From a bacterium (GTDB lineage: Bacteria > Sysuimicrobiota > Sysuimicrobiia > Sysuimicrobiales > Humicultoraceae): a stretch of DNA of 19,459 nt. The translations under genes were made by a program, and so were the position numbers. The stretch is from NCBI GenBank assembly GCA_041497675.1, contig JBGQGY010000071.1, forward strand, positions 1 through 19,459, given 5' to 3'. The notes under the pieces were generated by a model. That model ran no database searches, was not told the origin of the DNA, and saw only the letters and a program-made list of their open reading frames with translations. Below, piece after piece: positions 2,256 to 10,136 of this stretch. Position 1 is the stretch's first letter. Every line of letters starts with the position of its first letter.

Positions 2256-2266
2256 CCGCCTGATAA

Positions 2267-2412
2267 CGGCGATGACGGGGCAACCCACCCCTGAGCCGCG
2301 GCTGATGAGGCCGCCGGGCGCGCCCGATACGCGCAGAGAGTGCCAGAACCTGGAACAAGGGTGGTACCGCGGGAACCTCCCGTCCCTTGAGGATGTGAGG
2401 TTCTTTCCTTTT
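2267..2412 (+). ncRNA. T-box riboswitch (Pro specifier, ultra-short Stem I)
   Basis: Antiterminator AAGGG-TGGTACC-GCG...CGT-CCCTT (2358-2388). Stem I GGCGATGAC-GGGG-CAACCCA-CCCC-TGAGCC with CCC at 2284-2286. Stem IIA/B CGGGCGCGCCCG-ATAC-GCGC. Located upstream of proS. Confidence 0.9.
2372..2412 (+). terminator. T-box intrinsic terminator
   Basis: GAACCTC.CGTCC-CTTGA-GGATG.GAGGTTC hairpin followed by TTTCCTTTT; it overlaps the antiterminator 3' arm. Confidence 0.75.
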
Positions 2413-3873: not shown

Positions 3874-4665
3874 GTGCAGTACCTGATCCTCGCTCGACCT
3901 CTGGTCTTCATGGACTTTGAGTCCACCGGAACGAACCCGCTGACCGATCGCATTGTCGAGCTGTCGATGATCAGGGTGTGGCCCGACGGACGCCGCGAGA
4001 CCCTCACGCGGCGCGTCAATCCCGGCATGCCGATTCCTCCCGAGACGACCCGCTTTCACGGGATCACTGACGCCGACGTCGCCGGCGCACCGACCTTCGC
4101 GGAGATCGCGCCCGAGATCCTCGCGTTCATCGACGACGCCGATCTCGCCGGGTTCAACGTGCAGCGCTTCGACCTGCCGCTGCTCCGCCGAGAGCTCTCG
4201 CGTATCGGGAAGGCGCTGGACGTCACCGGCCGCGCCATTGTCGATCCGCAGACCATTTATCATCGCCGGGTGCCGCGCGACCTGGCGGCCGCCTACCAAT
4301 ACTACTGCGGCAAGGAACTCGTCGACGCGCACCATGCCCGCGCGGACATCGAAGCCTGTGTCGAGATCCTCGACGCGCAGCTCGCGATCTACGCCGACCT
4401 GCCGCGGACGCCACAGGAACTCTTCGAGCACTTCACCCCGCGCGACCCAGCCGCCATCGATCCCGACGGACGGTTCGTCTGGAGGGGAGACGAGGTCGTG
4501 CTGACCTTCGGGCCCGACGATGTGCGGGGCCGGACGCTGCGGGATGTCGTGGCACAGGATCGAGGCTTTCTGGAATGGGTCCTCCGGAAGGACTTTCACC
4601 CGGAGGTCAAACGCATCATTCAGGACGCGCTGGAGGGACGCCTGCCTACGGCGCCGACATCGTAA
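3874..4665 (+). CDS. DEDDh 3'-5' exonuclease (DnaQ/epsilon-like) with C-terminal extension
   Basis: ExoI DFESTG, ExoII FN..RFD and ExoIII HHARAD motifs. GTG start 5 bp after the proS stop. Confidence 0.88.
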   Translation: MQYLILARPLVFMDFESTGTNPLTDRIVELSMIRVWPDGRRETLTRRVNPGMPIPPETTRFHGITDADVAGAPTFAEIAPEILAFIDDADLAGFNVQRFDLPLLRRELSRIGKALDVTGRAIVDPQTIYHRRVPRDLAAAYQYYCGKELVDAHHARADIEACVEILDAQLAIYADLPRTPQELFEHFTPRDPAAIDPDGRFVWRGDEVVLTFGPDDVRGRTLRDVVAQDRGFLEWVLRKDFHPEVKRIIQDALEGRLPTAPTS

Positions 4666-6823
4666 CCTTCTCGTTGTACCCGAACATCGAGACCGCCATG
4701 TGGTGCGCTTCGCCTTCCATGAAGAGGCGCGCCGGATAGGCCGTGGCCAGGTCGATCCAGACCGCGAAGTGGAGGGCGCCGCTGGGCTCCGAGAACGTCA
4801 CGACCTGCGTCTGGCGCCCGTTGAGGTCGGCTTTCACCCCGAGCCGCGCTCCGACGATCCCGGTGGCCAGCGGGAAGCGAAACCGGACTTCCACAGAGCC
4901 GGGCCGCTCATTGATGTTCCATTTGCTTCCCTTGACGCGCGTGTAGGACTTCCTCCCCAGCACGCGACCCTCTTCCCCCGCGCTGGTGCGATACGTGAAC
5001 CGATCGGGTGGAGCGAACACGTACTCGCGGGTCACGATGGTGCCGTCGCCCGCCGAATAGTGCTCGACTTCCCGCCACGCGCTGATCTTCGCCACCTGTT
5101 GCTCGGCCCGCTTGAGAAGCGCCAGCGCCTGCGGGTCGTTGGGACCGCCCTCGGGTTTGCCGACAAGCACCGGCAGCGCGAGCGACACGTCCTCGGCGCC
5201 CTGCCGCCTCACGGTGATGTCGAGGTCCCACCAGCCGGGAGCCCCAATGAACGGGCCATCGCCGCCGGCTTTGCCGTCCTGACCCGTGAGCTGCGTGACC
5301 TGCGGCGGCAGATCGGTCGTCAACGATCCCAGCCGGAGGATGAAGCGTATCTCCCCGGTCGGGGGCTGCTTGTCCGGTCCCATCGTGACGCTCAGATCGA
5401 CCTTGTTGGCGCCCTGCTTTGCCGGTGACAAGGCGATCGCCACGTTCACGTTGTCGATCGTGCCGCCCATGAGGATTTTCGATTCTTCGGGGCGCTGGTT
5501 TATCGGCGTCTGGCCGTCGGCCGATTCAGTCCCTGTCACGGGCTGCGAGATCGCGACCGCCGCCGCGACAAGCACCACCGTCAGGGCGAGTGCCGTCTCG
5601 ACCCGGACCAACAACGTCAGCGGCGCCCACATGCGGGACGCGCCGGCCAGACGCGGGACGATGCGCCAACGGTTGACCGCTGCCGTCAGCAGCAGCGGGG
5701 TTAAGATGATGAGTTTAATGAGCAGGGTGCGGCCGTACACGGGTCCCAGCAGCGCCGACAGTGTGCCGAGGTAGAAGTACGCCTGTGTGACACCGGTCGC
5801 CACCAGAGTGATGACAGTGACAAGCGCGAGCCGTGAGAATCGCAGCGCGCCGGTCTTGACGACATCCGGCGTCACGCGGTGGATCACGGGGAGGTAAAGC
5901 GCTCCGAAGAACGCGAGCCCACCGACCCACACGCTGGCCGAGACGATATGCACGAGGCTGACCAGGCTGCCGATAGCCCCCCGGGTGAGCCCGTGCGTCG
6001 TGAGCACGGGCCCGATCAGCAACACGCTGAGAATCGCGATCAACCCATCGCGTTCGATTGGTCGTTGTGGTTTGAGCTGGATCAGCAAGAAGGCTGCGCC
6101 GGTCAGCCTGAAGGTCAGATCGTGCCCGTCGTGCGACACGGACAGCACCCGCAGCAGCGGCTCGCCGAGCGCGCCGGAGAGCGACAGCGTTCCCGCGATG
6201 GCCATCGCGTCGTTGACCAGCCTGTAGACGCCCGAGACGACGATCATCACAGTGGCGACCTGCGCGACCCGGTACAGGTGCACTCGGAGGTCGCCCGTCG
6301 CCGCCGCCGGGATCGGAAGCCACAGGAAGGCCACAATGCCGCCGGTCAGCAGCAGCACGCCGACCAGACCGAGCCATCGGGCCAGCACGTCCTGCCAGGC
6401 CGGCGCCGCGACCGTGCTGGACGCGCCGACCGGCACGGCGACGGCGCCCACGCCAAACGCAAACGATCCCCTCGTCAGGTGGCCGTCTACAGCAGAGATG
6501 ACGCGCCAGTCGACGATGTAGAGACCGGTCTCCAGCGACGGCACGTTGTAGACGACCGTGCGCCCGACACTCGAGAGGGGCTTCAACGGGATCCGCGTGC
6601 CGTCACGCACCAGGACGACGGTGCTGATCCGCGAGTCGACCGCTTCATTGAACTGCAACTCCATGCGGTCGGGGGAGGCCCTGAGCACGCTGCCGTGGGC
6701 GGGGGTCGAGAACTGGAGGACGGCGTGGGCCGAGGCGGCGGAGGAGAACAGTAGGACGAGCAGGACCATAGTACCCAGAAGACGGAGGGGCTGGTGGGGG
6801 GGAACACTAAATGGGATCGACAT
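4646..6823 (-). CDS. CopC-CopD copper uptake/resistance fusion with C-terminal extracytoplasmic domains
   Basis: Signal peptide then HAVL..STP, FNE and WRVISAVDGH (CopC). Transmembrane region with H..SASVWVGG, RFS and YGRTLLIK (CopD). About 300-aa soluble C-terminus. Start could also be 6769. Confidence 0.85.
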   Translation of the reverse strand: MSIPFSVPPHQPLRLLGTMVLLVLLFSSAASAHAVLQFSTPAHGSVLRASPDRMELQFNEAVDSRISTVVLVRDGTRIPLKPLSSVGRTVVYNVPSLETGLYIVDWRVISAVDGHLTRGSFAFGVGAVAVPVGASSTVAAPAWQDVLARWLGLVGVLLLTGGIVAFLWLPIPAAATGDLRVHLYRVAQVATVMIVVSGVYRLVNDAMAIAGTLSLSGALGEPLLRVLSVSHDGHDLTFRLTGAAFLLIQLKPQRPIERDGLIAILSVLLIGPVLTTHGLTRGAIGSLVSLVHIVSASVWVGGLAFFGALYLPVIHRVTPDVVKTGALRFSRLALVTVITLVATGVTQAYFYLGTLSALLGPVYGRTLLIKLIILTPLLLTAAVNRWRIVPRLAGASRMWAPLTLLVRVETALALTVVLVAAAVAISQPVTGTESADGQTPINQRPEESKILMGGTIDNVNVAIALSPAKQGANKVDLSVTMGPDKQPPTGEIRFILRLGSLTTDLPPQVTQLTGQDGKAGGDGPFIGAPGWWDLDITVRRQGAEDVSLALPVLVGKPEGGPNDPQALALLKRAEQQVAKISAWREVEHYSAGDGTIVTREYVFAPPDRFTYRTSAGEEGRVLGRKSYTRVKGSKWNINERPGSVEVRFRFPLATGIVGARLGVKADLNGRQTQVVTFSEPSGALHFAVWIDLATAYPARLFMEGEAHHMAVSMFGYNEKVTMSAP

Positions 6824-6879
6824 TGCGTTTAACCACACCAAGGATACTCGCCGAATACGGGGGGCGACAAGAGGATGCG

Positions 6880-7380
6880 ATGCGCGCGGCGATGAACACG
6901 GTGGTCGTGAGTGCGGCAACTGACCGGGTGCGCGAGGCCCTGGCGGCATCGGGTATCGCGGCGGAGATCGTGGAGTTTCCCCAGGGGACCCGGACCGCGC
7001 AGGACGCGGCCCGGGCGATCGGCACGACACTGGGCCAGATCGTCAAATCGCTCGTTTTTTTGGCCGACGGGAGACCGATCCTGGTGCTGGCCTCGGGGCG
7101 CAATCACGTGGATACGGGCAAACTGGCGCGCGCCGCGGCGAGCGCGCGCATCGACCGGGCGGATGCCGACCGGGTGCGTGAGACGACCGGATTCGTGATC
7201 GGCGGGGTCCCGCCAGTTGGGCATACTGTATCGTTGGAGACGTTTATCGATGAGGACCTGTTGACGTACGATATCGTCTATGCGGCGGCGGGCACACCGA
7301 CGGCAATCTTCCCGATCGCACCACGCGACCTGGTGCGCGCGACCGGGGGCCGGGTGGTGCACGTCGCGCGGCCGCAGTAG
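6880..7380 (+). CDS. YbaK/ProX (EbsC) family aminoacyl-tRNA deacylase
   Basis: TA.DAA..IG....QIVKSL, TG..IGGVPP and AAG motifs; start uncertain (6880-6907). Confidence 0.88.
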   Translation: MRAAMNTVVVSAATDRVREALAASGIAAEIVEFPQGTRTAQDAARAIGTTLGQIVKSLVFLADGRPILVLASGRNHVDTGKLARAAASARIDRADADRVRETTGFVIGGVPPVGHTVSLETFIDEDLLTYDIVYAAAGTPTAIFPIAPRDLVRATGGRVVHVARPQ

Positions 7381-9890: not shown

Positions 9891-9915
9891 AAACGTCGCA
9901 CACAAATCACATAGA

Positions 9916-10054
9916 GACCTTCAGGGCAGGGTGAGCCGGCACGACGCCGGCAATTCCCGATCGGCGGTACAGCCCGCGAGCTTGGCTGCCACGCAGCCGG
10001 GCAGGACTCGGTGAGACTCCGGGGCCGACGGTATAGTCCGGATGGAAGAGGGTC
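9916..10054 (+). ncRNA. FMN riboswitch (RFN element)
   Basis: CTTCAGGGCAGGGTGA...AATTCCCGATCGGCGGT..AGCCCGCGAGC...GGTGAGACTCC.GGGCCGACGGTATAGTCCGGATGGAAGAG consensus blocks upstream of ribD. Confidence 0.96.
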
Positions 10055-10136
10055 ACGTGATGCTCGGGTGTTGGACGCCGGGGCCGCGGCACGATCGTCG
10101 CGGCTTTCCTGCCCGCCCCGTGTATCTGGTTCGTAT

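Follow-up and report, generated by a model that had tools for sequence, protein, structure and literature searches.

In the available text of recent reviews, transcriptional T-boxes generally need a long Stem I carrying the IDTM for fast capture of the tRNA (PMC7583486), and ultrashort forms are translational, an arrangement explained by the time limit of transcription (Zhang 2020, PMC7583486). A truncated Stem I is reported there to need a Stem II S-turn, the adenines of which are worth more than 1000-fold in binding (PMC7583486). Class III T-boxes, described in the text available from Suddala 2023 as having a short Stem I, an apical loop of 5–6 nt and a required Stem II S-turn (PMC10482949), are exemplified by the actinobacterial ileS T-boxes of Nocardia farcinica (PDB 6UFM) and Mycobacterium tuberculosis (PDB 6UFG) (PMC10482949, PMC7583486). 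Classes III and IV are said 'mostly' to regulate translation (PMC10482949), which would allow for exceptions already known. According to the accessible part of its description, TBDB applied a class II model to Actinobacteria and to class I hits whose Stem I is truncated (PMC7778990), and ultrashort T-boxes with a terminator may be catalogued there. Among the literature matches listed, none described a transcriptional ultrashort or a Pro-specific short T-box, a result compatible with the existence of catalogued cases, and none of those matches described T-boxes in the CPR or the Sysuimicrobiota; the paper describing the Sysuimicrobiota contains 0 mentions of riboswitch or T-box.

The leader analyzed here lies in a window of 19,459 nucleotides (the whole stretch of DNA that was analyzed; GCA_041497675.1, contig JBGQGY010000071.1) from a member of the Humicultoraceae within the Sysuimicrobiota. 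An initial annotation had read it as a hybrid minimal T-box, specific for proline and ending in a transcription terminator. The comparative analysis suggests that the leader is most probably a proline-specific T-box in which a class-III-like decoding module is wired to transcription attenuation of proS.

Anatomy of the proS leader and its promoter

The T-box leader precedes proS at positions 2263–2412 of the window and fills part of a 258-nt intergenic gap, the 5' neighbor of which is an ammonium transporter gene (926–2164). The downstream gene (+ strand; Shine-Dalgarno sequence (SD) GAGGGAG 2413–2419, ATG 2423, stop 3868) is assigned to an archaeal-type prolyl-tRNA synthetase (ProRS) through a Pfam search of the ORF, which identified the domains tRNA-synt_2b, HGTP_anticodon and ProRS-C_1, and through the alignment of orthologues, which are alignable from residue 1. 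The nearest named ProRS loci belong to MAGs labelled Armatimonadota and to Candidatus Fervidifonticultor tertius (81% identity), the latter assigned by NCBI to Candidatus Sysuimicrobiota (formerly CSP1-3). Elsewhere in the window are an FMN riboswitch (9913–10057, + strand; RF00050, 89.2 bits, exceeding the cut-off) and a 794-aa ORF (4646–7030, - strand) with CopC and CopD domains, a copper-resistance fusion.

Scoring against RF00230, as proposed in the initial annotation, returned a match at 2263–2390 (+ strand) of 58.4 bits, with an E-value of 1.9e-12 for the stretch and 5.9e-12 for the whole genome, below the gathering cut-off of 93 bits. In the Rfam alignment, 5 nt stand in place of 74 Stem I model positions that correspond to the elbow-binding arm, and the elbow-binding IDTM (long Stem I, AG bulge and distal loop) is missing. 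The remaining Stem I (2268–2297, + strand) comprises a GGC/GCC base, a K-turn, a 4-bp GGGG/CCCC helix and a 7-nt end loop, CAACCCA. The K-turn is built from GAUGA and UGA strands, with a GAU bulge and tandem G2274-A2294 and A2275-G2293. With the distal Stem I missing, the former specifier loop serves as the end loop and displays the specifier CCC (2284–2286) followed by A2287. Stem II (2298–2314, + strand) is a 17-nt hairpin without an S-turn internal loop, as the initial annotation had noted, though the 5 bp and 7-nt loop proposed there are better read as 6 bp (GCGGCU/GGCCGC) closed by the loop GAUGA. It is followed by the Stem IIA and IIB pseudoknot (2315–2334, + strand), in which CGGG pairs with CCCG and the loop CGCG (2319–2322) pairs with CGCG (2330–2333); an F-box-like CCCGAUA is present in this region. 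The linker and Stem III (2335–2355, + strand) consist of the purine-rich AGAGAGUG, which is compatible with RRRxG as defined in the available text of PMC7583486, then CCAG-AAC-CUGG (2343–2353) and AA.

The T-box antiterminator (2358–2387, + strand) is composed of helix A1 (AGGG/CCCU), the bulge UGGUACC (2362–2368) and helix A2, which has G2369-U2383 at its base. In the RF00230 alignment the element reads AGGGUGGUACCGCG...CGUCCCU and contains the 7-nt UGGN-ACC bulge. The genome encodes tRNA-Pro with the anticodons GGG, CGG and UGG, and tRNA-Pro(GGG) has A73 and an encoded CCA, such that its ACCA end fits the UGGU of the T-box bulge. Specifier, downstream ProRS and this tRNA all agree with the proline specificity originally proposed, and both the RF00230 alignment and direct reading place every element of the initial annotation where it had been assigned. 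A snoPyro_CD match in the same search space (24.7 bits against a cut-off of 45) was rejected; it reflects K-turn-like GAUGA/CUGA motifs and not a C/D RNA.

The leader combines features of several described designs. As far as the available accounts of class III go, it shares with them the basal K-turn, a short Stem I without an elbow platform, an end-loop specifier followed by a purine, C at the third codon position, the IIA/B pseudoknot, and Stem III with the UGGN discriminator. On the same accounts it departs from the class III ileS T-boxes in its amino acid and gene (Pro, proS), in its lineage (Sysuimicrobiota, not Actinobacteria), in an end loop of 7 rather than 5–6 nt, and in a 17-nt Stem II hairpin that has no S-turn internal loop in place of an elongated Stem II with an S-turn (a 5-purine string). 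Its output is a terminator with a U-tract, unlike the SD-sequestering helix of those leaders. The discriminator and the terminator logic resemble class I transcriptional T-boxes (RF00230, of the Bacillus subtilis tyrS type, and the long proS T-boxes of this phylum), but approximately 75–85 nt of distal Stem I, comprising the specifier-loop S-turn, the AG bulge and the distal loop, are absent. Like the class II glycine T-box of B. subtilis glyQS, the leader is reduced and transcriptional; glyQS retains a long Stem I but has no Stem II or IIA/B, the reverse of the arrangement seen here.

Immediately upstream is a putative promoter (2227–2255, + strand) with a -35 element TTGCTG (2227–2232), a 17-nt spacer and an extended -10 element TGCTAGACT (2247–2255), which ends 12 nt before Stem I and predicts a transcript start at approximately 2262–2263, about 5 nt 5' of Stem I. 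A generic promoter scan of the window called no sigma-70 site before the leader, and the call therefore rests on conservation. Among the 22 related leaders with at least 50 nt of upstream sequence, a TAnnnT -10 element occurs 12–22 nt before Stem I in 20, an extended TG in 19, and TTG at a spacing of 17–18 nt in 20, while in 17 of the 22 the -10 element ends 12–13 nt 5' of Stem I. A long Stem I could not be accommodated downstream of a conserved promoter in this position. The negative promoter scan would fit a Stem I that is really long, with transcription starting further upstream and the short hairpin forming only its proximal part, as the initial annotation had considered. This reading is scarcely credible, being contradicted by the conserved -35 and extended -10 elements, by K-turn strands that close immediately around the 4-bp hairpin, by an Rfam alignment that covers nothing upstream, and by the absence of AG-bulge and distal-loop motifs from the 100 nt upstream.

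Conservation, covariation and regulatory output

A covariance model (R1), built from an alignment (A2) of 13 orthologous leaders, scored 81.9–137 bits on the leaders of 23 public species, the window included. All 23 matched leaders lie directly before ProRS, with 29–56 nt between the end of the T-box and the CDS. Stem II and IIA of the distant leaders are misaligned in A2, which was made with MAFFT, and a model-fitted alignment (A3) was used instead. Across the 23 sequences of A3, the paired fraction of cells is 95.1% and double changes occur in 12 of the 30 pairs, values that lean towards structure as a result of fitting to a structural model; none of 500 shuffles scored as high, and slid partners were 42–63% paired. 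The double changes fall in five of the six Stem II pairs and three of the four Stem III pairs, and all nine antiterminator pairs are 100% paired in the 23 sequences. The alignment of relatives that the initial annotation had called for thus revealed compensatory changes in the helices, the terminator included.

The single-stranded elements are similarly constrained. The specifier CCC is followed by a purine in every leader (A in 22 and G in one), within a Stem I end loop of 5–8 nt in the relatives, and the ultrashort Stem I with its apical specifier and without an elbow platform, as first described for the window, is conserved among them. In 22 of 23 leaders the Stem II loop terminates in GA or AA. 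Stem II is longer in only three (L133, L135 and L137), which carry an internal loop rich in purines at the corresponding height. The IIB loop has a downstream complement of 4–7 bp in all 23 leaders, through differing sequences such as CUCGUC/GACGAG, UCCGCC/GGCGGA and CGCA/UGCG, which bears out the pseudoknot proposed from the window sequence. Six leaders (L134, L130, L125, L126, L132 and L131), from genus g4 of family f1, carry a G+C-rich insertion of 20–50 nt in Stem III, elsewhere 2–4 bp; the remainder of the leader is unchanged.

Downstream of the sensor, a predicted terminator (2372–2412, + strand) comprises a hairpin at 2372–2404 (8 bp, a 1x1 loop, 5 bp and the loop CUUGA) and the U-rich UUCUUUCCUUUU at 2401–2412. 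The hairpin (-18.1 kcal/mol) and the antiterminator (-11.1 kcal/mol) overlap and are mutually exclusive, and both the SD and the start codon lie outside the hairpin, with the SD unpaired in both folds. A hairpin overlapping the antiterminator in its 3' half is present in every one of the 23 leaders, at -15.4 to -24.7 kcal/mol (mean -19.8) against an antiterminator mean of -10.5 kcal/mol. The A2-loop bases, free in the antiterminator, covary with the 3' arm of the terminator (AACCUC/GAGGUU, AGCCUC/GAGGCU, CAACCCCG/CGGGGUUG and ACGUCCCG/CGGGACGU), with GC in 12 leaders, AU in five, GU in two and CG in one at position -4, and CG in 12, GC in six, AU in two, UG in two and GU in one at position -2.

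A generic scan of the window called no terminator before proS, and the U-tract is interrupted in the window clade (UUCUUUCCUUUU here and CAUUUCGUUUC in relatives). Nevertheless, 12-mers with at least nine T account for only 2.6e-5 of those in this genome of 65.9% G+C, and this rarity, together with recurrence and covariation in 22 other species, indicates that the U-tract and the structure are not due to chance. In the 9 nt after the chosen hairpin, 19 of the 23 leaders have 5–8 U and four have 3–4 U, though the low counts in L120, L134 and L138 arise where the hairpin picked by scoring includes part of the U-tract; the tail of L126 (CAUAUCGUU) is genuinely poor. One RNA library contained 9% of the words, and its contigs, 90–95% alike, represent relatives and are uninformative on transcript starts and ends.

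The terminator is, judging by the structures predicted across the genome, also the usual T-box output of the organism. Six other T-box leaders were identified there, five of them full with a long Stem I and one cut off by the contig start, and all six end in a hairpin and an interrupted U-tract. The conserved hairpin and U-tract, the position of the SD and these similar ends together support the transcriptional reading, under which the switch would likely act by transcription attenuation, as originally proposed for a hairpin that ends in a U-tract and leaves the SD outside. The hairpin ends just 9 nt short of the SD and may therefore affect ribosome access to some degree. Control at the level of translation, or at both levels, would follow if the off-state hairpin hindered 30S binding from that distance, after the manner of the actinobacterial ultrashort ileS T-boxes. 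Reviews, in their available text, link a short Stem I to translational control, and the window clade has imperfect U-tracts and only 18–25 nt between the hairpin end and the start codon. Such control is unlikely: the SD and start codon lie outside the hairpin in all 23 leaders, the SD of family f2 leaders follows a canonical UUUUGUUUU tail at a distance of 20–40 nt, the off state has no anti-SD pairing of its own, and U-rich tails are kept in a genome of 66% G+C.

Distribution and history in the Sysuimicrobiota

The phylum was sampled through 94 genomes of one order, two of which (G019 and G010) are unpublished and support no claim made here. The sequence upstream of proS was readable in 76 public genomes; in the other 16 public genomes the gene start or upstream sequence is missing. 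An ultrashort T-box precedes proS in 23 of the 76 (14 in family f1 and nine in f2) and a long-Stem-I T-box, classed by eye from printed leaders, in 14 (six in f1 and eight in f2). In the remaining 39, from families f3–f7 and part of f1, there was no R1 match upstream of proS at an E-value of 0.01. The long version is confirmed for one of these leaders, L027 from a sister genus, which aligns fully with RF00230 over 213 nt and has CCC-A in an ordinary specifier loop. Long proS T-boxes in sister genera share with the window leader the promoter-to-K-turn spacing, the CCC-A specifier and the regulated gene. Applied to 151 Chloroflexota genomes, R1, a model tuned to G+C-rich Pro leaders, gave no match at an E-value of 1e-7 under strict filters.

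Two proS leaders of other form were observed. L037 (G027, family f4), which has no R1 match, retains what looks like part of a T-box (UGGU..GCGGGAGCCUCCCGUCCC) and, after it, a long hairpin that lacks a U-tract and whose 3' arm (CUCCCG) could pair with the SD; this element may be a translational or decayed form. In L023 (G037), a promoter is immediately followed by a terminator-like hairpin (GGGAAUCCCGUCC...GGGCGGGAUUCUCCAUUU) with no recognizable sensor.

A rapidly built ProRS tree with 40 rows (22 ultrashort, seven long and 11 without a T-box), which omits L128 and seven long-stem genomes that lack the coding sequence, distributes the ultrashort leaders over three clades, and its well-supported branches force at least three changes, as read from a single gene, a short search and an assumed root. 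Repeated loss of the distal Stem I is the simpler reading of this history, since regain of the whole elbow platform is unlikely.

Rfam scores are low for T-boxes throughout the window genome. All seven RF00230 matches fall below 93 bits, the five full, long-Stem-I leaders included, and the T-box leaders of this genome (G000; contigs C38, C78, C77, C1, C45 and C73) score 19.5–63.4 bits. The low score of the window leader thus reflects its lineage and not its truncation. Read from their specifiers and the N-termini encoded downstream, the five full T-boxes precede valS, Met-linked, hisS-like, thrS and ilvB-like genes.

The ultrashort design extends beyond proS. Inspection of 26 mid-scoring R1 matches identified six ultrashort leaders and 20 in which a long Stem I precedes the match, and a match of 130–160 nt with full model coverage was accordingly rejected as proof of a short stem. 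The six have a promoter directly upstream and a terminator downstream, and their specifiers match the genes that follow: UCC-A before serS (L142), GCC-A before alaS (L185, L188 and L199) and CCC-A before a gene for a ProC-like reductase (L184 and L195), the proC family being assigned from 52–54 residues only. In two of the alaS leaders (L185, G053:C131; L188, G055:C173) the K-turn is separated from the IIA/B pseudoknot by approximately 5 nt, and these seem to be T-boxes without any Stem II, hence without elbow contact or S-turn; unlike glyQS, they drop both the distal Stem I and Stem II. In one genome (G031), Stem I is long before proS (L022) but short before proC (L195) and alaS. The presence of long and ultrashort Pro T-boxes in the same genome implies that both designs work with the same tRNA pool. 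The hybrid nature first attributed to the window leader is upheld by these comparisons, but it is no one-off; rather, it belongs to a lineage-wide class with several specificities.

Loss of the IDTM and of the S-turn internal loop, both reported in the available literature to be important for binding, could also mark a decayed T-box, in which the truncated Stem I has lost tRNA binding and the leader serves only as a constitutive attenuator or a stability element, and the 39 of 76 proS leaders without a T-box demonstrate that loss occurs in the phylum. Decay is nonetheless quite improbable for a leader type in which CCC and a purine are kept in 23 of 23 cases, in which the K-turn, Stem II, pseudoknot, RRRxG and UGGU are kept with compensatory changes over three ProRS clades, and which recurs with matching codons before alaS (GCC), serS (UCC) and proC (CCC). 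Weighed on this comparative evidence, the window leader is a real, conserved T-box variant.

Proposed mechanism and implications

Under the proposed mechanism, transcription would start approximately 5 nt 5' of Stem I, and the nascent RNA would fold in order into the K-turn hairpin with CCC-A in its end loop, the 6-bp Stem II with its purine-rich loop and the IIA/B pseudoknot. By analogy with class III ileS, the K-turn and the pseudoknot would place Stem I beside Stem II and clamp the anticodon arm of tRNA-Pro(GGG), and the predicted clamp makes no contact with the tRNA elbow. With uncharged tRNA, the ACCA end would pair with the UGGU of the bulge, hold the weaker antiterminator and permit read-through into proS; otherwise the stronger hairpin (2372–2404) would form and transcription would stop in the U-rich tract before the SD. 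The tRNA binding, the clamp geometry and the termination itself are inferred, and binding by the module remains a prediction in that the S-turn internal loop, reported as necessary for a truncated Stem I, is absent. It is proposed from the sequence comparison that the purines of the Stem II loop may replace the purine string of the S-turn.

More tentatively, and at less than even odds, these leaders might constitute a distinct minimal T-box class defined by a K-turn hairpin, an apical specifier and a 6-bp Stem II. In such a class, the adenines of a GNRA-like loop would perform the minor-groove reading of the S-turn, the clamp would be fast enough for co-transcriptional sensing without elbow contact, and for proS the design would have been derived from leaders with a long Stem I on three or more occasions, while it would also serve alaS, serS and proC.

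Annotation by Rfam threshold misses T-boxes in this phylum, as every T-box match of the window genome falls below the cut-off. A terminator-type T-box without the elbow platform is a pairing treated as exceptional in the available text of field reviews, where, on the current account, a terminator-type switch has only a few seconds of transcription in which to catch its tRNA, and translational switches alone, being able to wait, can afford a short Stem I (PMC7583486, PMC10482949). The natural leaders described here dispense with the platform yet retain the terminator, and the majority also do without the S-turn internal loop; at 128 nt, the sensor may be of use for engineering. Long and short versions for one tRNA, found in sister genera and, in the case of G031, within a single genome, provide matched natural pairs for the kinetic argument.
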